Positions 3,340 through 61,254 of a DNA stretch of 64,000 bases are shown one piece after another. Below the pieces are notes generated by a model, which had not been told where the DNA came from, did not search any database, and saw only the letters and a list, made by a program, of their open reading frames with translations. Made by a program: the position numbers and the translations under genes. Source of the DNA: Stegostoma tigrinum (lineage: Eukaryota); contig NC_081399.1 in NCBI RefSeq assembly GCF_030684315.1, positions 9,534,113 to 9,598,112 on the forward strand, in the 5' to 3' direction. Position 1 is the stretch's first letter. Each line of letters opens with the position of its first letter.

Positions 3340-4477
3340 TAGGTTCCATCAGGGCCATTCGGCTCCTGGCCTCATTACAGCCTTGGTTCAAACACGGTCA
3401 AAATAGCTGAATTCCAGAGGTACGGGAGATTGACAGCCCTTGATGTCAAGGCTGCGTTTGACAGTCTGTGGCATCAGGGAGCCCTGACAAAACTGGAATC
3501 AATGGGTATCGGGGCAAACTCTCTGGTGGTTGGAGTCATACCTGACCCATAGAAAGATGGTCATAGTTATTGGAGGTCAGACATCTCCACTTCAGGATAT
3601 CTCTGCAGGAGTCCCTCAGGGTAGTATCCTAGGCCCAACCATCTTCAGCTGCTTCATCAATGACCTTCCCTCCTTCATAAGGTCAGACGTGGGAAGAAAA
3701 ACAGAAGTTGCTGGAAAAGCTCAGCAGGTCCAGCAGCACCTATGTACAAAACAACCAGTTAACATTTCTGGTCTGGTGACCCTTCTTCAGAAGTGGGGAT
3801 ATTTGCTGATGATGGCACAATGTTTCAGCACCATCCATGACTCCTCGGATACTAAAGCAGTCCATGTCCAAATGCAACAAGATCTGGGAAAATCCAGGCT
3901 TGGGCTGACAACTGACACATCGTGCCACACAAATGCCAGGCTATGCCCATCACCAATAAGAGACAATCTAACCACTGCCCATTGACATTCAATGGTGTTC
4001 CCATCACTGAATCCCCCCAGTATCAACATCCTGGGGGTTACCATTGACCAGAAACTCAACTGAACCCACCACATAAACACAGCGGCTACAAGAGCAGGTC
4101 AGAAGCTGGGAATCCTGCAGTGAGTAACTCCTCTCCTGACTCCCCAAAGCCTGCCCAACATCTATAAGGCACCACATCCAGAAACATCCCACTCCCTGCC
4201 CCCACCGACGCTCAGTCACAGCTGTGTGTACCATCTACAAGACGCTCTGCAGAGATTCACCAAAGATCCTCAGGGAGCACCTTCCAAACCCACGACCCAC
4301 TTCCATCCAGAAGGACAAGGGGCAGCAGGTACATGGGACCCCCACTCCCTGCAAGTTCCACGCCCCATCCTGACCTGGAAATATATCCTTCTTCCTTCAG
4401 TGTTGCTGGGTCAGAATTGTGGGTCAGTCGACAGCACATGGACGGCAGTGGGTCAAGAAGACAACTCCTCTCCCCCC

Positions 4478-14349: not shown

Positions 14350-16380
14350 TACAAACAGGAACGGGCCCTCAGCCGACAATGTTGTGCTGACCATGATGCC
14401 AGATTAACCAATCCCTTCTGCCTGTCTTTTGGTCCATAGCCCTCCATCCCTCGTGTATTCATGTGCTTAGTTTTAAAAAAAACCCTAAACACCCCTATTG
14501 TATCTGCCCCCACCACCACCCCTTGGCACCGTGTTCCAGACTCCTACCACTGTCTGTAAAATAACTCTTTTTTCCCCCCCCCCCCCACCCCATCTCCTTT
14601 GAACTTTCCCCCTCTCACCTTCAATACATACCCACCCCAGTATTAGTCACTTCAACTTTCAGGGGGCTGGGAGGGGAAAAAGGGTTCTGACTCTCAACCC
14701 GATCTTATGCATCTCATACTTTTATACACTTCTTTAGGGTCCCCCCTCAACAGCCACCTAGATTCCCCTTACAGCTCCGACCTGTAATCCGGCAGCGTCC
14801 TGGTAACCTCTTCTGCACCCTGTCCAAAGCCTCCACATCCTTCCTGTAATGGGGCGACCAGAATTGAACACAATACTCTAAGTGCGGCCTGAGCAAAATC
14901 TTAGAAAACTGAAAAATGACATCCTGTCTCTTGTACTCAATTCCCTGACCAATAAAAGCAAACCCAATACCTTCTTGACCACCCCATGGACTTGTGTGGC
15001 CACTTTTGGGGAGCTATGGACTTGAACCCCAAGTTCCCTCTGGACATCAATGCTGTTCAGGGTCCTGCCATTAACTCTATGCCTTTCCTGAATATTTGGT
15101 CTCCCGAAGTGCATCACCTCACACTTACCCAGATTAAACTCCATCCTGCCCATTCCTGCTCCGATCCACATCCCGCTCTTATCCTTTGACAACCTGCACT
15201 TTCCACAGCTTCACCGATCTTGGCATCGCCTGCAAACTTCCTAACCTACCCATCCACATTTTCATCCAAGTCATTTATACACCTCACAAACAGCCGCCGT
15301 CCCAGTACGGATCCCTGTGGGACATCACTTATCACAACCCTCCAGCCTGAAAAACACTCTTCCACCACTACCCTCTGCCTTCTATAGACGAGCCAGATCT
15401 GAATCCAAGCAGCCAAGTCACTGTGGATCCCCTGCATTTTAATCTCCTGGATGGGACTAACATGAGGGACCTTGCGAAAGCCTTCCTGAAATCCATGTCA
15501 ACAACATCCATTGTCACTCTCATTTATCACCTCCTGAAAAAAAAATCAAGTCAGTAAGACATCTGCCCTGCATAAAGCCATATTTTTCCAAATGTGTGTC
15601 AATCCGATCCCCAAGAATTCTATCTGGGAGCTTCCCAGCCACCAAGGTGAGACTCACCAGTCTAGAGTTTCCTGGCTTATCCCTATTTCCCCTCTTGAAT
15701 AGCGGAAACAGCAATGGCCAGTCGCCAGTCTTCCAGGACTTTGTGTGGCTCGTGAGGATATAAACATTGTGGTCAATCCCTTCTTTTGCCTCTCACACTA
15801 ACCTGGGGCTAGATCCCATCGGGCCCTGGGGACTTAGCCACCTTAATGCTCTTCAAGAGACTCAACACCATTTCTTTCTGGATCTCAAAATGCCCTGGCA
15901 TATTCGCAAGCTCCCACACAAATTGCACTAACCTCCATATCCTTCTCCCAGGTGAAGAGTGATACAAAGCACTTATTGAGGATCTCATCCACATCCTCTG
16001 CATCCAAGCACAAGTCCCCTTCTTTATTCTCGTGTGTTCCTACCTTCTCGCTAGTTATCCTCTTGTTTATAATGTATCTACAGAATGCCTTGGAATTGTC
16101 TTTAACCCAATTTGTCAAGGTCATTTCATTGCCTTTTCTTGCTCTCCTAATTCCCTGCTTGAATTCTTTCCTACTCCTTTGTATTCTTCACTGTCTAACT
16201 TTAGTTCCCTAAATCTTACATATGCCTTCCTCTTCCACCTCCCTCTTTTTTTGACTAAATTCACAACTTCCCTCATTATCCAGGGGTCCCATACCTTGCC
16301 ATCCTTATCCCTCTTCCTTACTGGAACATGTCAATCCTGAACTTTCATCAGCACACCTTTGAACAGTTCCCACATGTTAA
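14350..16380 (-). mobile_element. Long decayed CR1 LINE (ORF2 tether, RT and 3' end)
   Basis: KSPGPDGI, LFKRGNRDKPGNSRLVSLT, DVPQGSVLG, MEFNLGKCEVMHFGR across frameshifts. Confidence 0.92.
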
Positions 16381-20400: not shown

Positions 20401-20630
20401 CACCATTTATTGCAGCATCTGTGAAGGGAAAAGCAGAATTAACATTTCGGGTGTTGTGACCCGTCCTCATGACTGTTCTGAGGAAGAGTCACCCCGGACC
20501 CAAAACGCTAACTCTGTTTTCTCTTCCACAGATGCTGCCAGACCTGCTGAGCTTTTCCAGCAACTTCTGTTTTTGTTCTTGATTTCCAGCATCCGCAGTT
20601 CTTTTAGTTTTTATCACCATTTATTGCAGC
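20401..20630. mobile_element. Fold-back Penelope-like short element with 16-bp TSD
   Basis: caccatttattgcagc at 20401-20416 and 20615-20630; imperfect inverted arms each with a degenerate hammerhead-like core. Confidence 0.75.
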
Positions 20631-25146: not shown

Positions 25147-26317
25147 TTGGTGGCTCGGTGGTTAGCACCGCAGCCTTGTGGCTCCAGGGGCCCAGGTTCA
25201 ATTCCAGCCTCAGGTAACTGCCTGTATGGAGTTTGTGCATTCTCCCTGTGCCTGTGTGAGCTTCACTCGGGTGTTCCTCCCACAGTCCGAGGATGCGCAA
25301 AACTGGCCACGCTACATTACTCGGGATGTGTAGGAATTGGTGCGTTAGCCGTGGAAATTGCAGGGTGGAGTGTGGATGGAATACTAACGTATAGTGACGA
25401 AGGATGCTATAGGTTGCAGAGAGACATAGATAAGCTGCAGAGATGGGCCGAGAGGTGGCAAATGGAGTTTAATGCGGACGAGTGTGAGGTGATGCACTTT
25501 GGTAGGAGTAACCGGAAGGCAAAGTACAGGGCTAATGGTAAGATTCTTGGTAGTGTAGATGAGCAGAGAGATCTCGGTGTCCATGTACACAGATCCTTGA
25601 AAGTTGCCACCCAGGTTGACAGGGGTGTTAAGAAGGAATACAGTGTTTTAGCTTTTATTAATAGAGGGATCGAGTTCCGGAACCAAGAGGTTATGGTGAA
25701 GCTATACAAAACTCTGGTGCGGCCGCACTTGGAGTATTGCGTACAGTTCTGGTCACCGCATTATAAGAAGGATGTGGAAGCTTTGGAAAGGGTGCAGAGG
25801 AGATTTACTAGGATGTTGCCTAGTATGGAGGGAAGGTCTTACGAGGAAAGGCTGAGGGACTTGAGGCTGTTTTCGTTAGAGAGAAGAAGGTTGAGAGGTG
25901 ACTTAATTGAAACATATAAAATAATCAGAGGGTTAGATAGGGTGGATAGGGAGACCGTTTTTCCTAGGATGGTGATGGCAAGCACGAGGAGGCATAGCTT
26001 TAAATTGAGGGGTGAAAGATATAGGACAGATGTCAGAGGTGGTTTCTTTACTCAGAGAGTAGTAAGGGAATGGAACGCTTTGCCTGCAACGGTAGTAGAT
26101 TCGCCAACTTTAAGTACATTTAAGTCGTCATTGGACAAGCATATGGACGTACATGGAATAGTGTAGGTTAGATGGGCTTGAGATCGGTATGACAGGTCGG
26201 CACAACATCGAGGGCCGAAGGGCCTGTACTGTGCTGTAATGTTCTATTCTATAACTCTATAATACTGTTTGGACGATCAGTGTGGCCGAGCGTTCGTCCA
26301 CACTGTAGGGCTTCTAT
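25147..26317 (+). mobile_element. HE1-type SINE split by a young CR1 insertion
   Basis: SINE head at 25147-25385 (A and B boxes); SINE 3' part resumes at 26261-26317. Confidence 0.8.
25386..26260 (+). mobile_element. Young 5'-truncated CR1/HER1 LINE with uninterrupted ORF2 C-terminus
   Basis: ~260 open codons to the stop at 26166 (WQMEFNADECEVMHFG, LVRPHLEYCVQFWSP, FFTQRVVREWNALP); tail ttctat/ctctat; TSD AATACT at 25380-25385 and 26261-26266. Confidence 0.93.
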
Positions 26318-26564
26318 ACCAAAAACATCAGTGACTGACTTCATTGCATTCCCTCCCAGAAGAGTAAGGAAATAAAATGTTTCGAATTCTCTTTGTTAAT
26401 ACACATAGCTGACTTTTCTTGATTGTCCTAAACTATCTCATCCTTCATCATTGAGAAAATACAAGCCATCTATATCACTGCCAACAGTTTTCATATCCTT
26501 CCAGTTTTCTGATGCCTCTTTTGCTGAGGAATTGTTACAATTGCTTCAGGGATAGCAGCAGCTA

Positions 26565-26718
26565 CAGATACTGGAGAATCTGAGACAACAAGGTGTAGAG
26601 CTGGATGAACACAGCAGGTCAAGCAGCATCACAGGAGCAGGGTCGAGGCCCGAAACATCAGCTCCTCTGATGCCGCTTGGCCTGCTGCGTTCATCCATCT
26701 TTACACCTTGTTATCTCT
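26565..26718. mobile_element. Fold-back Penelope-like short element
   Basis: acaaggtgtagagctggatgaacacagcagg ... cctgctgcgttcatccatctttacaccttgt inverted arms; central ggcccgaaacatc. Confidence 0.7.
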
Positions 26719-28127: not shown

Positions 28128-28995
28128 GGCACAGTGGCTCAGTGGTTAGCACTGCAGCCTCACAGCGCCAGGGACCAGGGTTCGATTCCAGCCTCGGGTA
28201 ACTGTCTGTGCAGAGCTTGCGTATTCTCTTTGCGTGGGTTTCCTCCGGGCGCTCCAGTTTCATCCCACAGTCCAAAGATGTGCAGGCTAGGGTGGATTGG
28301 CCAGGTTAAATTGTCCCATATTCCTCAGGAATGTGTGGGTTAGGGTGGGTTGGCCGTGCTAAATTGTCCCATAGTGCCCAGGGATGTGCGGGTTAGGGTG
28401 GGTTGGCCGTGCTAAATTGTCCCATAGTGCCCAGGGATGTGCGGGTTAGGGTGGGTTGGCCGTGCTAAATTGTCCCATAGTGCCCAGGGATGTGCAGGTT
28501 AGGGTGGATTGGCCGTGCTAAATTGTCCCATAGTGTCCAGGGATGTGCGGGTTAGGGTGGGTTGGCCGTGCTAAATTGTCCCATAGTGCCCAGGGATGTG
28601 CAGGTTAGGGTGGGTTGGCCGTGCTAAATTGTCCCATAGTGCCCAGGGATGTGCGGGTTAGGGTGGGTTGGCCGTGCTAAATGATCCCATATTGCCCAGG
28701 GATGTGCAGGTTAGGGTGGATTGGCCGTGCTAAATGATCCCATAGTGCCCAGGGATGTGCAGGTTAGGGTGGGTTGGCCGTGCTAAATTGTCCCATAGTG
28801 CCCAGGGATGTGCAGGTTAGGGTGGATTGGCCATGCTAAATTGTCCCATAGTGCCCGGGGATGTGCGGGTTGGTTGCATTAGCTATGGGAAATCCAGAGA
28901 TTGGGTTACGGGATGGGTTTGGGTGGGATGGTCTTTAGAAGGTCAGTGTGGACTTTTTTGGGGCCGAATGGCCTGTTTCCACACTGTGGGGATTC
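28128..28995 (+). mobile_element. Complete HE1-type SINE containing ~11 tandem 53-bp units (~28277-28860)
   Basis: A box 28135-28145, B box 28179-28189, internal array identical to the reverse complement of 1-2363, normal 3' tail. Confidence 0.92.
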
Positions 28996-32270: not shown

Positions 32271-32539
32271 GAAGATGCCCAGCTTCCTCGAAGAAAAGCT
32301 CCAGAACCAGAACAATCCATATTCCGTCCCCAGTTGGAGTGAAGTGGATTTGCAAACATCGCTTTTGGGTGAATCTTTGATTTTGCAATGGGCCGCGAGC
32401 AAAGAATAGATTAGTCACGCTCCCAGCCAGCTTCTTGCAGTTTCCCACTCCTGCAGCTTTCATGATATTTTTATACAGCGGGTTCCTCTCTGAGTCGGAA
32501 ACGGTGGCGCGTTCCAAATGCAACCCCCAACTTGAGAGT

Positions 32540-33130
32540 GAGAGACACGACACTCAGGGAGAGACAGAGAGGGAGGGAGAGAATGGCAGACGGAGAGATA
32601 GAGGGAGAGAGAAATTGGAAGGGATAAGAGGCCGAGAGAAGGAACGAGGCAGGCAGAGCAGGGGTGAACAAAACTGGGATGAAGACAAAGAGAGATGTAC
32701 ATCAAGATGAACAAAGATGTGCAGAAGTGGAGAGCGAGGGGAGGGGGTGGGGAGAGAGATGACTGAGAGAGGGATAAAGATAAGGAAGAAGAGGGAATGG
32801 GGTTAAACACTTGAGATAAGGAGGGAGAAAGGACGCTGGGAGATACAGGGGAAAAGGGGCATGGGGAGATCACGAGTGGGAGAGGATGGGAGAAACTGTG
32901 AGATAGATAAAGTTGGAGAGGATGGGGGAACACTTTGAGATAAGGGGAAAGAGAGAGAGAGAGAGAGAGGACAGTAGAGTTAAGGAGAGCGAGTGTTGGA
33001 CAACTGGGGAGACTGTGAGCTAATGAGAGAGAAAGAAGGCTGGGGGTTGCGAGACTGTGAGATAAGGATAGAGGACAGGCGAAAGCCAAAGATAAGGAAA
33101 GAGAGAAATAGAGATAGAGAGGACAGAGGG
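32540..33130 (+). repeat. GA-rich low-complexity tract
   Basis: Purine-rich degenerate (GA)n. Confidence 0.85.
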
Positions 33131-33234
33131 ACACTCTGATAAGAAGATCAAAACTGCACACAATACTCCAGATAATAAAATGTGAGGCTGGACGAACACA
33201 GCAGGCCAAGCAGCATCTCAGGAGCACAAAAGCT

Positions 33235-33262
33235 GACGTTTCGGGCCTAGACCCTTCATCAG
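33235..33262 (-). ncRNA. Minimal hammerhead ribozyme core (left-arm copy)
   Basis: Reverse complement reads CTGATGA-a-GGGTC-TA-GGCCC-GAAAC-GTC. Confidence 0.6.
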
Positions 33263-33744
33263 AGAGGGGGATGGGGGGAGGGAACTGGAATAAATAGGGA
33301 GAGAGGGGGAGGCGGACCGAAGATGGAGAGTAAAGAAGATAGGTGGAGAGAGTGTAGGTGGGGAGGTAGGGAGGGGATAGGTCAGTCCAGGGAAGACGGA
33401 CAGGTCAAGGAGGTGGGATGAGGTTAGTAGGTAGCGGGGGGTGCGGCTTGGGGTGGGAGGAAGGGATGGGTGAGAGGAAGAACCGGTTAGGGAGGCAGAG
33501 ACAGGTTTCTGCCTCCCTAACCGGTTCTTCCTCTCACCCATCCCTTCCTCCCACCCCAAGCCGCACCCCCCGCTACCTACTAACCTCATCCCACCTCCTT
33601 GACCTGTCCGTCTTCCCTGGACTGACCTATCCCCTCCCTACCTCCCCACCTACACTCTCTCCACCTATCTTCTTTACTCTCCATCTTCGGTCCGCCTCCC
33701 CCTCTCTCCCTATTTATTCCAGTTCCCTCCCCCCATCCCCCTCT

Positions 33745-33772
33745 CTGATGAAGGGTCTAGGCCCGAAACGTC
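33745..33772 (+). ncRNA. Minimal hammerhead ribozyme core (right-arm copy)
   Basis: CUGAUGA box, GGGUC/GGCCC helix II, GAAA box, palindromic ACGU in place of helix III, GUC cleavage triplet. Confidence 0.6.
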
Positions 33773-33939
33773 AGCTTTTGTGCTCCTGAGATGCTGCTTG
33801 GCCTGCTGTGTTCGTCCAGCCTCACATTTTATTATCTTGGAATCTCCAGCATCTGCAGTTCCCATTATCTCTGACACAATACTCCAGATATGGTCTCACC
33901 TGGGTCCCTGGACAATTGCATCAAGATTTAGCAGATAGA

Positions 33940-34072
33940 CTCAGAGATAGTAGGAACTGCAGATGCTAGAGTCTGAGATAATACTTTGTAGAGCTGGATG
34001 AACACAGCAGGCCAAGCAGCATCAGAGAAGCAGGAAGGCTGACGTTTCGGGTCAGGACCTTTCTCCAGAAAT
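33940..34072 (-). mobile_element. Penelope-like terminal fragment
   Basis: Homologous to 33745-33873 in reverse, with core CTGGAGA...cccGAAACGTC. Confidence 0.7.
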
Positions 34073-34559
34073 GAAAATAGACTGTTGCCTTTTATGCCTC
34101 TCCAGGGCACGACGATCGTAGCTCTATGGCTTTTGTGATCAGACCTGACACAAAGACCTTTCCCTGTTCCAACGTTTGCAAAACACACCTCAAAAAGTGT
34201 GAAATTCCAGCAGGATGGGGTCTTTCCCTCCGTCAACGTCCTTCTCAACATCTCCCCGAGAGGCATGGTGACCCTCAGGTTAAACTCACCACATTATCTC
34301 TCTCTAATGAGAGAGCAGCTCTATGGTCTTGTGGGAGCATGACAATGTAACCTCTATTAGTGACATTACACACCATGAGTCCATATTCCAAAGAAAAGTT
34401 CAATTCGTTAATAAGGTTCGGAATGAAAAGCCACTCCCAGGGGTGATAACTGGTTACTGTTTATGAATATAACATCTGTCTGGGTTCACTGAAGCCTCTA
34501 AGGGAGGTACATCTGTGGATCTCGCCCAATCGAACCTCCAGACACACAGTGATAAATTG

Positions 34560-35285
34560 GATTATCATTTATTCACTAGTGGATGTGGGCGTCTCTGGCT
34601 GGCCCCAACATTTATTGCCTCCTGTCCCTACTTGCGCCCCCTTAAGAAGCAGTGGGGAGCTGCCTTCTTGAACCCCTGCAGTCCATCTGCCGTAGGTTGC
34701 CCCACAGTGTCCCCTTAGGAACGGAATTCCGGGGATCCTGATCCAGCGGCACTGTAGGAACGGGGATATATTTCCGAGTCAGAATGGGGACGGGCTCGGA
34801 GGGGAACATGCAGGGGGTGGGGGTCCCATGTACCTGCTGCCCCTTGTCCTTCTGGATGGAAGTGGGTCGTGGGGTTTGGAAGGTGCTCCCTGAGGGTCTT
34901 TGGTGAGTCTCTGCAGAGCGTCTTGTAGATGGTACACAGTGCTGCGACTGAGCGTCGGTGGGGTGGGGGGGGGGGGGGGGGGTGGAGGAAGTGGGATATT
35001 TGTGGATGTGGTGCCAATCGAGCGGGGGCTGCTTTGTCCTGGATGGTGTCGAGCTTCTTGAGTGTTGTTGGAGCTGCCCCCATCCAGGGGCAAGTGGGGG
35101 GGGGCGGTATTCCATCCCACTCCTGCCTTGTGCCGTGTAGATGGTGGGGCAGGATTCTGGACGGGAGTCACTCGCTGCAGGGTTCCCAGCCTCTGACCTG
35201 CTCCTATAGCTGCTGTGTTTATGTGGTGGGTCCATTTAAAAGAGCAGATCAGAGGCTTGGAATCCCGCAGTGAGTAACTCACCTT
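34560..35285 (-). mobile_element. CR1-group LINE family B, 3' fragment
   Basis: Reverse complement of the 6990-7650 segment. Confidence 0.87.
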
Positions 35286-39586: not shown

Positions 39587-40096
39587 CTCGACTCGAGGTG
39601 CACCAGCGTCGGCGAGTGTTCTGTCGGGATGGGCTCCTGTGCGCGGCTACAGCCCCCTCACCTCCCGGGCCTTCATGTTGCACACGAGTCCCAGGGTTTG
39701 AGGCCAAGCCCAGAAGGAGAAGCCAGGGCACAGCCATCCATCACACAGGCGGGTGAACTGGGAACAGGAGTAGGCCAGTCGGCCCCTCAAGCCTGCCCTT
39801 ACCCCATGACTCCCATCACAGGCCAAAGCTCCGCAGCGGTCTCTGCCCTTTCGAGCCCCCACAGGACCGTAGACATGTGTTAACCGGGGGCTCTTTCGTT
39901 CTTTTCAGACACTGCACAGTTACCGGCCACGCTGTGTGGGAGCTGAAAGGGTTAATTCCGCTGCAATGATTCGGGGGGGGGAGTGGGTGTGGGGGGCAGC
40001 GAGTGTAGGGCACAGGTATCGCCCTCAGACACTGGTCACTGGTCACTTTCAAAAATAGCTTCAGCGACAAACACAAGATCAACAGGACCCTTCCAG

Positions 40097-41620
40097 ACAC
40101 CCACACACACCCGCTCACAGACCACCCCCTACCCCCCTCCCCCACACACACCCGCTCACAGACCACCCCCTACCCCCCTCCCCCACACACACCCGCTCAC
40201 AGACCACCCCCCACCCCCCTCCCCCACACACACCCGCTCACAGACCACCCCCTACCCCCCTCCCCCACACACACCCGCTCACAGACCACCCCCTACCCCC
40301 CTCCCCCACACACACCCGCTCACAGACCACCCCCTACCCCCCTCCCCCACACACACCCGCTCACAGACCACCCCCCACCCCCCTCCCCCACACACACCCG
40401 CTCACAGACCACCCCCTACCCTCCTCCCCCACACACACCCGCTCACAGACCACCCCCTACCCCCCTCCCCAACACACACCCGCTCACAGACCCCCCCCTA
40501 CCCCCCTCTCCCACACACACCCGCTCACAGACCACCCCCTACCCCCCTCCCCCACACACACACCCGCTCACAGACCACCCCCTACCCCCCTCCCCCACAC
40601 ACACCCGCTCACAGACCACCCCCTACCCCCCTCCCCCACACACACCCGCTCACAGACCACCCCCTACCCCCCTCTCCCACACACACCCGCTCACAGACCA
40701 CCCCCTACCCCCCTCCCCCACACACACACCCGCTCACAGACCACCCCCTACCCCCCTCCCCCACACACACCCGCTCACAGACCACCCCCTACCCCCCTCC
40801 CCCACACACACCCGCTCACAGACCACCCCCTACCCCCCTCTCCCACACACACCCGCTCACAGACCACCCCCTACCCCCCTCCCCCACACACACCCGCTCA
40901 CAGACCACCCCCTACCCCCCTCCCCCACACACACCCGCTCACAGACCACCCCCTACCCCCCTCCCCCACACACACCCGCTCACAGACCACCCCCTACCCC
41001 CCTCTCCCACACACACCCGCTCACAGACCACCCCCTACCCCCCCTCCCCCACACACACCCGCTCACAGACCACCCCCTACCCCCCCTCTCCCACACACAC
41101 CCGCTCACAGACTACCCCCCTCCCCCACACACACCCGCTCACAGACCACCCCCTACCCCCCTCCCCCACACACACCCGCTCACAGACCTCCCCCTACCCC
41201 CCTCCCCAACACACACCCGCTCACAGACCTCCCCCTACCCCCCTCTCCCACACACACACCCACTCACAGACCTCCCCCTACCCCCCTCTCCCACACACAC
41301 CCGCTCACAGACCTCCCCCTACCCCCTCTCACACACACCCCCTCTCACACACACCCACTCACAGACCTCCCCCTACCCCCATCTCTCATACTCACACGCT
41401 CACAGACCTCCCCCTACCCCCCTCCCACACACACCCACTCACAGACCTCCCCCTACCCCCCTCCCACACACACCCACTCACAGACCTCCCCCCACCCCCC
41501 TCCCACACACACCCACTCACAGACCTCCCCCCACCCCCTCTCCCACACACACCCACGCACAGGCCTCCCCCTACCCCTCACTCCCACACACCCACACCCA
41601 CTCACAGACCTCCCCCACCA

Positions 41621-41660
<40 letters not shown>

Positions 41661-41946
41661 CCTCCCCCTACCCCTCTATCCCACACACACACTCACACAT
41701 ACACAGACCTCCCTCACCCCTCTATCCCACACGCAACACTCACACATACACAGACCTCCCCCACCCCTCTATCCCACACACACACTCACACATACACAGA
41801 CCTCCCCCACCCCTCTCTCCCACACACACACTCACACATACACAGACCTCCCCCACCCCTCTCTCCCACACGCACACACACACACGCACACACACACACA
41901 CGCACACGCACACGCACACACAGACACACAGACACACACACACACA
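40097..41946 (+). repeat. 41-bp C-rich minisatellite decaying into (CA)n
   Basis: Unit cacacacacccgctcacagaccaccccctacccccctcccc. Confidence 0.95.
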
Positions 41947-41989
41947 GATTAAATCACTCCTTAACCTTCTTAATTCTAGAGAATAAAGG

Positions 41990-42695
41990 CCCAGTTATCT
42001 AATTTAACCGCTGAAGTTCAGGTAATATCCTTGTAAACCTGTGTTGAACACCTTCCACGCCCATTGTATCCTTCCCAAGGTGTGGTGCCCAGTTCCGCTC
42101 ACAGTACTTAGTGAGATCCAGCTAGAGTTTTGTATAATTGCAAAATAACTTCTGCATCCCTATACCCCAGCCCTTTAGACGTGAAGGCCGGCATTCCATT
42201 AGCCTCCTTTACAACATTCTGTGCCTATTTGTGGTACTTTAAAGAGCAGTGCATCTGAACGCTCACAAATCCAGTTGGATATCCACAATATTTAACTTTG
42301 TGCCTTCTAAGAAATACCCTGATCTATCCTTTTCTCAGAGTTGCTTATATTAAAATCCATCTGCCGCAGCTTTACCCATTCACCTCATCTATCAATTTCC
42401 TGTTGTAATGTTTTGCTGTTGCCAGCGCAGTCTATTTCGTGTTGTCGGCAAGTTTGGATATTTGCCTTTTTATGTCTTTATCCAAGTCGTTAATGGGTAC
42501 TGTGAATTAATTGAGGCCCCAATACAGATTCTTGTGGACATCACTAGCCAGTTTGAGGACCTACCCATTAATCCAACTCTGTTTCCTGCCACTGAACCGA
42601 TTTCCTATCCAAGTCAGTGATTCACCTTCAGTTTCGTGGGTTTCCACCTGAGCTAGCACCCTCTTGTGTGAGGCTTTATCGAAAGCCCTGACGCA
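41990..42695 (-). mobile_element. Old CR1 LINE fragment
   Basis: Degenerate KFADD-, LEYCxQ- and KAFDK-like motifs on the minus strand. Confidence 0.65.
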
Positions 42696-44689: not shown

Positions 44690-45610
44690 TATGACCTCTC
44701 TATTCTTGTATTTAATCCCCCTCGTGATAAACAACAGTATTCCGTTAGCTTTACTGATCACTTGCTGTAACTGCATACTAACTTTTTGCAATCTATATTT
44801 GGGTCCATCACCCCCACCTCCTGACCCAGACCTCTCTGTATCTCTGAGCTCTGGAGCCTCTCACTAGTTAGATAATATGCTTGTTTTGTTTTAATCCTCT
44901 CTGCTAATTTCCCACTTTCCCATATTGTACTGCATTTGTCAGATCATTGCCCACTCACCGAACCCATCTCTGTCCATTTCAAGATTCCCTACGACCCCTT
45001 CACAGCTCACTTTCCCACCACGCTTTGTGTCGTCGGCAAATTTCACTTTCGTCATACCGTACGTCCAAATAATGATGTAAATTGTACAGAGTTGATGTTC
45101 CCAGCTTTGGACCCTGCCTACCTGAAAAAGCCCCACTCATCCCTACTCTCTGTTTTCTGTTGGCCAACCAATCCTCCATCAATGCCAGTCTGCTACCTGC
45201 ACGATGAGCTTTTATTCTCTGCAATAATACTTGATGTGACACCTTATCAAATGCCTTCTGGAAATCTAAATACAGTATGTACCCTGGTCCCTTTTTATCT
45301 ATAGTAGTATTTAATTCTTCAAATAATTCCAACAAATTAGTTGAACATTATTTCCCTTTCGCAAATCTATTGCCTGCTCACTAAGTATTTTGTTCTAATG
45401 TTTTTAAAAATAGATGTTACACTAATTGGCCTGTCCTTTCCTGCTCCCTGCCTCCCTCCTTTATAGAATAAAGGGATTGTGTTATTTTCCAATCTACAGG
45501 AACCTTCTCCGAATCTGATGTGGAAAATTAAAACCAACACATCAACTATTTCATGAGCTCCTTAATTTAGAACCCAAAGTAGACTTTCATCAGGACCTGG
45601 GGGTCATGTT
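44690..45610 (-). mobile_element. Old CR1 RT fragment
   Basis: LYLDFQKAFDKVSH, WLANRKQRV, KFADDTK. Confidence 0.88.
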
Positions 45611-50500: not shown

Positions 50501-50786
50501 CTCTCTCAGCACTGACCCTCCAACAGTGCCCGCTCCCTCAGCAATGACCCTCGGACAGTGCCCGCTCCCTCAAGACTGACCCTCCGACCGTGCCCACTCC
50601 CTCAGCACTGACCCTTCGACAGTGCCCACTCCCTCAGGACTGACCCTCTGACACTGCCCACTCCCTCAGCACTGACCCTCCGACAGTGACACATCCCTCA
50701 GCACTGACCCTCTGACAGTGCCCACTCCCTCACTACTGACCCTCTGACAGTGCCCACTCCCTCAGCACTGACACTCCGATAGTGCG
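47517..50786 (+). repeat. 32-bp satellite, ~100 units
   Basis: Unit actgaccctccgacagtgcccactccctcagc. Confidence 0.97.
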
Positions 50787-50787
50787 G

Positions 50788-53700
50788 ACTGTGCACGGAG
50801 CTCCGAGTGTGGGTATAACTGAGGGATACAGAGACTGGAACTGTGCAGGGTTCTCCGAGTGTGGGTCTGACTGAGGGATACGGGGACTGGAACTGTGTAT
50901 GGTGCTCCGAGTGTGGGTCTAACTGAGGGATACAGGGACCGGAACTGTGCACGGTGCTCCGAGTGTGGGTCTGACTGATGGATACGGGGACTGGAACTGT
51001 GCACGGTGCTCCGGGTGTGGGTCTAACTGAGGGATACGGGGACCGGAACTGTGCGCGGTGCTCCGAGTGTGGGTCTAACTGACGGGTACGGGGACCAGAA
51101 CTGTGCACGGTGCCCCGAGAGTGGGTCTGACTGAGGGATACGGGGACCGGAACTGTGCATGATGCTCCGGGTTTGGGTCTAACTGAGGGATACAGGGACC
51201 AGAACTGTGCACGGAGCACCGAGTGTGGGTCTGACTGAGGGATACGGGGACCGGAACTGTGCACGGTGCTCCAAGTGTGGGTCTAACTGAGGGATATGGG
51301 GATCGGAACTGTGCACGGTGCTCCGAGTGTGGGCCTGACTGAGGGATACGGGGACCGGCATTGTGCATGATGCTCCGGGTGTGGGTCTAACTGAGGGATA
51401 CAGGGACCAGAACTGTGCACGGTGCTCCGAGTGTGGGTCTAACTGAGGGATACGGGGACCGGAACTGTGCACGGTGCTCCGAGTGTGGGTCTAACTGAGG
51501 GATATGGGGATCGGAACCGTGCACGGTGCTCTGAGTGTGGGCCTGACTGAGGGATACAGGGAACGGAACTGTGCACGGTGCTCGGAGTGTGGGTCCAACT
51601 GAGGGATACGGGGACCAGAACTGTGCACGGTGCTCTGAGTGTGGGTCTCACTCAGGGATCCGGGGAACGGAACTGTGCATGATGCTCCGGGTGTGGGTCT
51701 AACTGAGGGATACGGGGACCAGAACTGTGCACGGTGCTCCGAGTGTGGGTCTAACTGAGGGATACAGGGACCAGAACTGTGCATGGTGCTGCGAGTGTGG
51801 GTCTAACTGAGGGAAACAGGGACCAGACCTGTGCACGGTGCTCCGAGTGTGGGTCTGACTGAGGGAAACGGGGAGCAGAACTGTGCACGATGCTCCGGGT
51901 GTGGGTCTAACTGAGGGATACGGGGTCCGGAACTGTGCACGGTGCTCCGAGAGTGGGTCTGACTGAGGGACACGGGGACCGAAACTGTGCATGATGCTCC
52001 GGGTATGGGTGTAATTGAGGGATACGGGGACCAGAACTGTGCACGGTGCTCCGAGTGTGGGTCTCACTGAGGGAAACGGGGGGCAGAACTCTGCACGGTG
52101 CTCCAAGTGTGGGTCTAACTGAGGGATACGGGGACGAGCACTGTGCACGGTGCTGCGAGTGTGGGTCTAACTGGGGGATACAGGGACCTGAACTGTGCAC
52201 GGTGCTCCGAGTGTGGGTCTAACTGAGGGATACGGGGACCGGGACTGTGCACGGTGCTCCGGCTGTGGGTCTAACTGAAGGATACAGGGACCAGAACTGT
52301 GCACGGTGCTCCGAGTGTGGGTCTAACTGAGGGATACAGGGACCGGGACTGTGCAGGATGCTCCGAGTGTGGGTCTGACTGAGGGATACGGGGACCAGAA
52401 CTGTGCACGGAGCTCCGAGTGTGGATCTAACTGAGGGATACAGGGACCGGGACTGTGCACGGTGCTCCGAGTGTGGGTCTGACTGAGGGATACGAGGACC
52501 GGAACTGTGCAGGATGCTCCGAGTGCCGGTCTGACTGAGGGATACGGGGACCAGAAATGTGCACGGTGCTCCGAGTGTGGGTCTGACTGAGGGATACGGG
52601 GACCAGAACTGTGCACGGTGCTGCGAGTGTGGGTCTAACTGAGGGATACAGGGACCAGAACCATGCACGGTGCTCTGAGTGTGGGTCTGACTGAGGGAAA
52701 CGGGGAGCAGAACTGTGCACGATGCTCCGGGTGTGGGTCTAACTGAGGGATACGGGGACCACAACTGTGCATTGTGCTCCGAGTGTGTGTCTAACTGAGG
52801 GGTACAGGGACCAGAACTGTGCACGGTGCTCCGAAGGTGGGTCTGACTGAGGGATACGTGGACCACAACTGTGCATTGTGCTCCGAGTGTGTGTCTAGCT
52901 GAGGGGTACAGGGACCAGAACTGTGCACGATGCTCCGAGTGTGGGTCTGATTGAGGGATATTGGGACCGGAACTGTGCACGGTGCTCCGAGTGTGGGTCT
53001 GACTGTGGGATATGGGGACCGCAACTGTGCACGGTGCTCCGAGTGTCGGTCTCACTGAGGGATACTGGGACCGTAACTGTGCACGGTGCTCCGAGTGTGA
53101 GTCTCACTGAGGGATACAGGGACCGGAAGTGTGCACGGTGCTGCAAGTTTGGATTTAACTGAGGGATACAGGGACCAGAACTGTGCACGGTGCTCCGAGT
53201 GTGGGTCTGACTGATGGATACGGGTACCGGAACTGTGCGCGGTGCTCCGAGTGTCGGTCTCACTGAGGGATACGGGGACCAGAACCGTGCACGGTGCTCC
53301 GAGTGTGGGTCTAACTGAGGGATACGGGGACCAGAACTGTGCACGGTGCTCCGAGTGTGGGTCTGACTGAGGGATACGGGGAACACAAATGTGCACGGTG
53401 CTCCGAGTGTGGGTCTGACTGAGAGATACGGGGAGCAGAACTGTGCACGATGCTCCGAGTGTGGGTCTAACTGAGGGACACAGGGACCGGAACTGTGCAC
53501 GGTGCTCTGAGTGTGGGTCTAACTGTGGGATACAGGGACCAGAACTGTGCATGGTGCTCCGAGTGTGGGTTGAACTGATGGATACGGGGACCAGAACTGT
53601 GCACAGTGCTCTAAGTGTGGGTCTGACTGAGGGATACAGGGACCGGAACTGTGCACGGTGCTGCGAGTGTGGGTCTCACTGAGGGATACAGGGACCGGAA

Positions 53701-54662
53701 GTGTGCATGGTGCTGCAAGTTTGGATTTAACTGAGGGATACAGTGACCAGAACTGTGCACGGTGCTCCGAGTGTGGATCTGACTGATGGATACGGGGACT
53801 GGAACTGTGCACGGTGCTCCGAGTGTGGGTCTGACTGAGGGATACGGGGACCAGAACTGTGCACGGTGCTCCGAGTGTGGATCTGACTGATGGATACGGG
53901 GACTGGAACTGTGCACGGTGCTCCGAGTGTGGGTCTGACTGAGGGATACGGGGACCAGAACTGTGCACGGTGCTCCGAGTGTGTCTGACTGAGGGATACG
54001 GGGACCGGAACTGTGCACGGTGCTCCGAGTGTGGGTCTAACTGAGGGATACAGGGACCAGAACTGTGCACGGTGCTCCGAGTGTGGGTCTGACTGAGGGA
54101 TACAGGGACCGGAACTGTGCACGGTGCTGCGAGTGTGGGTCTCACTGAGGGATACAGGGACCGGAAGTGTGCATGGTGCTGCAAGTTTGGATTTAACTGA
54201 GGGATACAGTGACCAGAACTGTGCACGGTGCTCCGAGTGTGGATCTGACTGATGGATACGGGGACTGGAACTGTGCACGGTGCTCCGAGTGTGGGTCTGA
54301 CTGAGGGATACGGGGACCAGAACTGTGCACGGTGCTCCGAGTGTGGATCTGACTGATGGATACGGGGACTGGAACTGTGCACGGTGCTCCGAGTGTGGGT
54401 CTGACTGAGGGATACGGGGACCAGAACTGTGCACGGTGCTCCGAGTGTGGGTCTAACTGAGGGATACAGGGACCAGAACTGTGCACGGTGCTCCGAGTGT
54501 GGTTCTGACTGAGGGATACGGGGACCGGAACTGTGCACGGTGCTCCCAGTGTGGGTCTAACTGAGGGATACAGGGACCAGAACTGTGCACGGTGCTCCGA
54601 GTGTGGGTCTGACTGAGGGATACGGGGAGCAGAACTGTGCACGGTGCTCCGAGTGTGGGTGT
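50788..54662 (-). repeat. 52-bp satellite, ~74 units, derived from CR1 ORF2
   Basis: Plus-strand unit ctgtgcacggtgctccgagtgtgggtctaactgagggatacggggaccagaa; minus-strand translation gives PHSEHRAQFWSPY / PHLEHCAQFWSPY. Confidence 0.95.
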
Positions 54663-54714
54663 AACATCAGAACTTCAGGGTAACAGAACAGTGTGCAGGA
54701 TGTCGTGTTAAAGC

Positions 54715-60420: not shown

Positions 60421-60794
60421 CCAAAAAGTCAGAAACAATACAGTGTGGAGCTGGAGCAACGCAAGCAGGAAGGGCCCAGACCCGAAGCCTCAACTTTTGT
60501 GCTCCCCTGAAGCTGCCTGGCCTGCTGTGTTCCTCCAGCTCCACACTGTGTTATCTTGTCTCCTGGCCTGCAGCTATAGTTCACAACTCCTGTGATTTAC
60601 ATGCTGTAAGTCAACTGTAAACTAAAGTTTTGTTTTGAAGTAAATCTTTACTGGTTCCACTCTAAACTGTTTCCATTGCTGATTAGCTTTTCTTAGTAAA
60701 AGCATTTATTAGAATTCCACTCATGAAATTCAACTACTTTACAACTTTACCAAGCCATGAAACAAATCCACAAACAACTCGGGCATCACAACCA

Positions 60795-61010
60795 AACAAA
60801 AACAAAAAGAACTGTGGATCGTGTAAATCAGAAACAAAAGCAGAAGCTGCCAGAAAAGCTCAGCAGGTCTGGCAGCATATGTAAGGAGAAATCAAAATTA
60901 ACGTTTTGGGCCTGCGTTCTGAGGAAGGGTTGTTTGATCCGAAATGTGAACTCCATAGTCCACGGGTACTGCCAGGCCTGCTGAGCTTTTCCAGCAATTT
61001 CTATTTTCGT
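60795..61010. mobile_element. Fold-back Penelope-like short element (a second lies at ~60430-60575)
   Basis: aaaagctcagcaggtctggcag ... ctgccaggcctgctgagcttttcc inverted arms; CTGAGGA...ccGAAAtgt core. Confidence 0.7.
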
Positions 61011-61254
61011 TAACTTCTCTAATGTTTCTTTCCACAGAGAATCTCATCATATCCAATTTAGATCTACATGGAGGCTATAAATCCAGCCGTGGACATTTGC
61101 TGTACGTAACTGTCGGCCATCTTGTCATCTTGTCATGGGCTGCTACAATACTTGCCGTTCTCTTTTAGGATTCTAAGCAAGCTGTTTCTATTTTATTTTC
61201 ATCATTCTGTTTGCCACAGTATTCACAGCTCGCTCATCCCTATCACCCTGCCTC

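Follow-up and report, generated by a model that had tools for sequence, protein, structure and literature searches.

Background

Endonuclease-bearing Penelope-like elements (PLEs) leave insertions of a characteristic form. In the parts of Craig et al. (2021, PMC8557442) that deal with insertion structure, the usual features are an inverted, 5'-truncated copy and a tail of 30–40 bp on one end. The corresponding parts of Arkhipova et al. (2013, PMC3846280) describe head-to-head pLTRs in rotifers with a 31-bp tail, a target site duplication (TSD) of 8–10 bp and palindromes at the junctions. For the Anolis Poseidon element PAc, it was reported that the Penelope protein of this lizard cuts and extends both target strands, that reverse transcription begins at two sites bounding the tail, and that hammerhead cleavage occurs only with the element's protein and is dispensable for insertion in vitro; the steps after the start of reverse transcription are stated there as unvalidated (Frangieh et al. 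2024, PMC11167929). For metazoan PLEs, Cervera and de la Pena (2014, PMC4209133) describe minimal hammerheads, among them that of D. virilis Penelope, which has a 2-bp helix I and a palindromic loop 3; in S. mansoni such motifs stand on opposite strands 100–700 bp apart, and monomers are reported to be inactive and dimers of low activity. Animal non-LTR retrozymes, as presented in bioRxiv 10.64898/2026.07.22.740005, are related to PLE pLTRs, are reported in a cartilaginous fish among other animals, and have as their defining trait a head-to-tail tandem arrangement, through which a dimer can cleave. In titles and abstract starts of the literature on Penelope in sharks, the family described below was not named (Repbase and Dfam lay outside the scope of this search), and no paper on twin priming with Penelope was found by title or abstract start. 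Excerpts of PMC12910113 and PMC6155905 held nothing on inverted insertions.

The present analysis concerns a palindromic insertion in a 64,000-nt stretch of Stegostoma tigrinum DNA (hereafter the window). The palindrome is very probably composed of the 3' ends of a Penelope-like retroelement. It probably represents two truncated copies placed head to head by one insertion event into a presumed CR1 remnant, with both cut target strands priming reverse transcription. Taken by itself the locus is of little consequence, being a clear case of an insertion form already known for Penelope. What value remains lies in the family, where young copies record TSD length, the choice of start site and the geometry of the centre.

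Architecture of the insertion

The two arms of the palindrome (33170–33499 and 33508–33837, 330 bp each) are exact reverse complements with 0 differences and are separated by an 8-nt spacer (GACAGGTT, 33500–33507), for a total of 668 bp. A 17-bp direct repeat (33158–33174 and 33874–33890, + strand) stands at the two sides; the chance of such a repeat near both palindrome ends was estimated at 3e-8, which is a rough figure. On the right side only, the arm is extended by exactly 36 nt (33838–33873, + strand; hereafter the tail). The initial annotation had described the 668-bp palindrome with its arms and spacer, a 17-bp TSD duplicating part of a 'LEYCVQF' remnant and about 36 extra bases on the right, and all three were borne out. 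At the outer edge of the left arm, 5 nt (33170–33174) double as the final 5 nt of the left TSD copy, and since these bases are common to arm and TSD the insert proper was taken as 33175–33873 (699 bp). The left junction has a microhomology of 5 matching bases, or 8 of 9 if one bulge is allowed.

Minus-strand translation yields VRPYLEYC for the right flank and YLEYCVQF* for the left one; these two peptides align to consecutive, overlapping parts of a longer LINE-type frame at 25711–25768. Because the flanks match consecutive parts of this frame, the 17-bp repeat is a true TSD within a decayed LINE, a fragment which we take to be of CR1 type.

Between the TSD copies lie an inverted, 5'-truncated, tail-less left copy of the element 3' end (33170–33507, minus strand) and a direct, 5'-truncated right copy (33508–33873, plus strand) of 366 nt including the tail. 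The tail runs from an inner 3' end (33837) to an outer 3' end (33873), and the motif ATTATCT precedes both ends (33831–33837 and 33864–33870). In 2 contigs of sequencing run X9, which comes from another organism, the sequence leading up to 33508 closes with the spacer in reverse complement (agreement 1), and the spacer (minus strand) is most likely upstream sequence of the element itself that only the left copy carries. If the spacer belongs to the left copy, that copy would extend past the 5' limit of the right copy by 8 nt, and the junction would fall at 33507/33508 with no shared letters. Just outside the insertion lies an older, tailed solo copy of the same family (33942–34069, minus strand; 80% identical), bordered by a 7-bp direct repeat (33935–33941 and 34077–34083).

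Related copies in the window and in public runs

In contigs of public sequencing runs the arm proved to belong to a very abundant repeat, of which it forms the 3' end. A query of 33465–34400, which holds one full arm, matched 180,483 of 16.6 million contigs in run X1 and 234,911 of 23.7 million in run X3, and in two further runs it matched 4,338 contigs (X5) and 1,721 contigs (X9, the other organism). At least 99% identity was seen in 29,036 of the matching X1 contigs. Summed X1 depth reached 1e6–2e7 on the arm, as against 5–17 in bins of the unique flank (34105–34232), a measure that is not copy number. Most of the unique flank is left uncovered by runs X5 and X9; in X5 the element is present with almost none of the unique flank. 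Loose ends at 33987 were found in 1,117 X1 contigs, whose consensus tracks the element to the inner end and is mixed thereafter. Among contigs of other copies, 6 of the 12 rows listed hold antisense-to-sense joins near the hammerhead, at differing places.

BLAST and local alignment, with two loci chosen by eye from a motif scan, gave ten older related loci in the window, approximately 70–85% identical and mostly confined to the last 80–130 nt. Four of the ten are head-to-head pairs (at 20.4, 26.5, 60.4 and 60.8 kb), in which both strands scored above all 30 shuffles; the arm identities of these pairs are 54/72, 50/57, 34/42 and 35/43, and their 5' ends are offset by about 2, 15, 29 and 52 nt. 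By the same local alignment with 30 shuffles, a second arm above the shuffles was not found at the other six loci. The 2.6-kb locus appeared pair-like by eye and was rejected as a fifth inverted pair, its second arm reaching 22 against 26 for the shuffles. The 20.4-kb locus carries a 16-bp TSD (20401–20416 and 20615–20630), the end of which overlaps the start of the inverted arm. The pair in the stretch 20401–20630 belongs to a sister subfamily, is older than the focal insertion and has a near-symmetric centre; other decayed pairs occupy 26547–26716, 60427–60561 and 60830–61011, and in the first of these the tail is on one arm and the other arm ends at the inner site.

Fourteen significant alignments of older copies were compared at their 3' ends: 6 end at 33832–33838, 4 at 33870–33873 and 4 elsewhere. 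Because 10 of the 14 fall at these two places, the left and right ends of the focal insert correspond to the two usual ends of the family. Seven of the 14 alignments begin at 33744–33752, the start of the hammerhead core, and mixed loose ends were seen just before 33744 in 410 and 368 contigs. Starts at this place, which precedes the predicted cleavage site by approximately 28 nt, may reflect a stop of the reverse transcriptase or a short non-autonomous form. In the comparison of window copies the best-conserved block was 33781–33821 (plus strand), which lies downstream of the hammerhead, is conserved across subfamilies better than the hammerhead itself and is predicted to contain a short stem; it is a candidate site for binding of the protein of the element.

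Flanking direct repeats vary among loci (17, 16, 7 and 5 bp). The clear paired insertions have TSDs of 17 and 16 bp, the solo copy (33935–34083) has 7 bp and the locus at 2625–2772 has 5 bp, too few cases for a rule on TSD length in paired and solo insertions.

Probable assignment to Penelope-like elements

The assignment to Penelope-like elements is most likely correct on the basis of architecture. In common with the endonuclease-bearing units treated in parts of PMC8557442 and PMC3846280, the focal insert has an inverted, 5'-truncated copy lying head to head with the direct copy and adjacent at its 5' side, a one-ended tail (36 nt here, between two preferred 3' ends; 30–40 bp in those units), a TSD around the whole unit (17 bp, and 16 bp at the 20.4-kb locus) and, close to the 3' end, a terminal hammerhead motif of type I. 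It differs from those units in that it has neither an open reading frame (ORF) nor a direct tandem of pLTRs, in that no more than 8 nt separate the points at which its two copies stop, which makes the whole insert one palindrome, and in its TSD, which is 17 bp as opposed to 8–10 bp in the rotifer cases (PMC3846280). A reading of the palindrome as unusual is not supported, since the form is published as standard for Penelope-like elements and four of the ten older window loci share it. The focal insert is a non-coding stump in this already described insertion form.

An ORF for reverse transcriptase (RT) or GIY-YIG endonuclease linked to the focal repeat was not found by Pfam searches of 134 stop-free frames of the window (133 of 223 candidate frames and one short arm frame), and the insert itself is too short for such an ORF. 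Only three weak RVT_1 matches were obtained, all below the curated cut-off and far from the focal locus; these lie at 3488–3982, 15249–15497 and 45003–45347 and are probably LINE remnants. A crude scan of the window for what we take to be characteristic RT and GIY-YIG motifs returned only unconvincing matches. Exact-pattern scans of metagenome, viral and genome contigs for a source element with an ORF gave 0 loci.

Hammerhead motifs

Each arm carries one 28-nt motif of the minimal type I hammerhead kind, at 33745–33772 on the plus strand in the right copy and at 33262–33235 on the minus strand in the left copy. With up to 3 mismatches allowed, the window yielded no match beyond these 2, and 0 of 100 shuffles gave any. 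The right-copy motif was indexed against the relevant part of PMC4209133: positions C3 to A9 correspond to 33745–33751, followed by an extra A (33752), helix II (33753–33764) and G12 to A14 (33765–33767). Helix III is one A–U pair around CG, forming the palindromic ACGU (33768–33771), and cleavage is predicted after C33772. Helix I has just 2 contiguous pairs. The initial annotation had reported both the twin minimal cores and the weak pairing of helix I, and on these points the full indexing agreed with it.

All of the features by which minimal PLE hammerheads are recognized were present, namely C3–A9, G12–A14, A15.1–U16.1 and H17, together with an extra base after A9, G10.1–C11.1 and a palindromic loop 3. 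The closest described form is the D. virilis variant (PMC4209133, in part), with which the focal motif shares the intact core, the extra base between 9 and 10.1, G10.1–C11.1, the 2-nt palindromic loop 3 and the 2-bp helix I. The two focal motifs also stand on opposite strands, as do the pairs reported in S. mansoni. Helix II is 4–5 bp in the focal motif, a putative ribozyme, and 6–8 bp in the motifs of that work.

A search of the window against Rfam gave no hit at the gathering score, and on 33508–33900 no hammerhead family matched at E values of up to 10; one lncRNA match on that interval (E 3.1) was at chance level and was rejected. In a table of 13 window rows, two of which were the focal arms, 89.6% of 77 cells in the hammerhead helices were paired, against at most 53.2% when the pattern was slid. 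The hammerhead pair measures were reached by 128–491 of 500 shuffles and covariation by 213 of 500, so that none of them surpasses the shuffle control.

Folding predictions disfavour the hammerhead in the monomer (-3.6 vs -12.8 kcal/mol, z-scores -0.6 to +1.0). When two motifs were cofolded, an alternative duplex was predicted at -40.0 kcal/mol, against -13.3 kcal/mol for a partial ACGU-dimer form from which helix I was omitted. Whichever strand is read through, the RNA is predicted to have 28 of 28 core nucleotides paired with the other arm (lowest probability 0.997), within a 330-bp duplex of about -805 kcal/mol. Because the two motifs are on opposite strands and the core would be buried in this duplex, they are predicted to be unable to act as a dimer in cis. 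An RNA starting inside the palindrome would be the only way to leave one motif free, and the hammerhead fold of that RNA is itself disfavoured in the model. The two motifs are thus best regarded as predicted passengers, with no active ribozyme expected in read-through RNA, and the proposal made at annotation that a transcript of either strand carries a usable ribozyme is not upheld, given the paired core and the opposite strands, which bar a tandem dimer. Twin-hammerhead palindromes of this kind are to be read as Penelope stumps and not as two-way ribozyme devices. The predicted read-through duplex would be a likely silencing substrate. Long perfect palindromes like this one would also be expected to give rise to double-stranded RNA and to make the DNA around them unstable.

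Mechanism of insertion and alternative origins

In L1 twin priming, the second target strand primes internally on the RNA by microhomology, producing an inverted segment inside the TSD. The inverted piece is there a different, upstream part of the RNA, whereas the focal inversion duplicates the same 330 nt. Two-strand priming at the element's two start sites would fit the focal insert. The endonuclease would nick the two target strands 17 nt apart; the bottom-strand end would prime at the outer start site and give the tailed right copy, and the top-strand end would prime at the inner site, aided by the 5 matching bases, and give the tail-less left copy. The left cDNA end could then fold back on 2–3 weak pairs, and its extension would meet the right cDNA, leaving a near-symmetric centre. 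Plain end-joining, or a perfect centre that was trimmed afterwards, would be indistinguishable from this, and one locus cannot separate fold-back, end-joining and trimming. On balance we favour two-strand priming as the origin of the focal insert, and regard sealing of its centre by fold-back as a possibility that we would somewhat doubt. More tentative again is a coupled reaction on site, in which a stagger of 16–17 nt exposes two primers, each primer takes one motif-marked start and the tail-less cDNA folds back on 2–3 bp; if this were so, the unsolved late steps of Penelope integration could be read from thousands of junctions.

The layout agrees with that of PAc (PMC11167929) in that two preferred 3' ends bound the tail, extension from both target strands fits the arrangement of the copies, and the hammerhead lies upstream of the start sites in both. 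Some points stand against the proposal. PAc starts in an AC-rich stem-loop and primes without target homology, whereas in the focal insert ATTATCT precedes both ends and microhomology marks the left junction. The 17-bp TSD exceeds the 8–10 bp given in PMC3846280.

The main rival retains the same kind of element but has one antisense strand prime itself and so form the palindrome, either ahead of integration or separately from it, with resolution by the endonuclease then leaving the one-sided tail. Self-priming on an antisense template was proposed for head-to-head junction palindromes in a part of PMC3846280, and a part of PMC8557442 ascribes the tail to endonuclease resolution. The identical arms ending 8 nt apart suit this account, as do the spacer ends, which are able to pair G–T, A–T and C–G. 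Pairing as good as this was found at 8.6% of 313 hypothetical ends along the arm, and folding of the left cDNA end predicted no hairpin there; the signal for fold-back is weak. Against self-priming, the spacer appears to lie in the tail-less copy, a strand that could not have templated the tail, and fold-back of the tailed strand would have put the spacer on the other copy. The 5' offsets of the four older pairs exceed what a small loop predicts, and PMC11167929 ties the tail to two reverse transcription start sites. We therefore keep self-priming as an unlikely alternative to two-strand priming. An origin by fold-back or template switching had been suggested at annotation; that some such step took part during insertion stands, while a single fold-back fails for the whole pattern because the strand that seems to own the spacer lacks the tail, so that both the tail and the side of the spacer are left unexplained.

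That the palindrome is an artefact, either a fold-back chimera or a pair of arms made identical by collapse or polishing, is considered highly improbable. The window contains three N gaps, as expected of a scaffolded assembly, such structures are said to trouble assemblies in a part of PMC8557442, and among the contig joints listed for 33465–34400 none spans the junction of the focal copy and none represents an empty site. However, the mirror symmetry excludes the unique flank and stops at the inner 3' end of the family, the TSD restores a continuous frame of presumed CR1 type across the insertion, the spacer matches element sequence in the 2 contigs of another organism, and the layout is repeated, with a 16-bp TSD, at an older locus whose arms are 75% identical. 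In addition, 74–78% of the words of 32400–34700 were recovered in four runs of two samples, one of which may be the source; no RNA run was among those listed for this interval. Polishing could still hide a few differences between the arms.

Similarly improbable is a non-autonomous, MITE-like or retrozyme-like palindromic element moving as a fixed hairpin unit with two ribozymes, for which the perfect arms, the TSD and the very abundant sequence would speak, but which is contradicted by the unequal ends, the centres differing between loci, the 6 of 10 older loci without a significant second arm, the flanking repeats of 17, 16, 7 and 5 bp, the lack of a head-to-tail tandem and the core predicted to be fully paired in read-through RNA. 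A MITE or foldback DNA transposon was rejected on the 36 extra nt at one end and the varying repeats (17, 16, 7 and 5 bp) and centres. A non-LTR retrozyme was rejected on the motifs being on opposite strands with no third match in the window; as described in the excerpt of bioRxiv 10.64898/2026.07.22.740005, retrozymes are like the focal insert in being non-coding and in carrying a type I hammerhead, but they form head-to-tail tandems, whereas the focal insert is one head-to-head pair.

Age of the insertion

The arms of a palindrome can be homogenised. With 0 differences in 330 bp, divergence between the focal arms is bounded to 0.9%, which corresponds to approximately 6 million generations at the shark mutation rate of 7e-10 per generation given in PMC10587355, a rate that applies if the host is shark-like. 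At four CpG sites of the repeat, the deaminated letter made up 12–25% of summed X1 depth, and the focal arms keep these sites and hold 9 CpGs each. The focal copy is accordingly younger than the family average, because its CpG sites are kept. The insertion had been called very recent; a young copy is upheld, and 'very recent' goes further than the evidence, since identical arms bound the divergence only to 0.9%. Run X5 showed less CpG decay than X1 at the same four sites (0.2–6.5% vs 12–25%).

Other features of the window

A tandem repeat with a period of approximately 53 bp occurs at 1–2360 and 28330–28860 in opposite orientation. Long tandem-repeat arrays with long stop-free frames were found at 39956–42002 and 50698–54666, and by eye the latter recalls a LEYCVQF-like LINE segment repeated many times.
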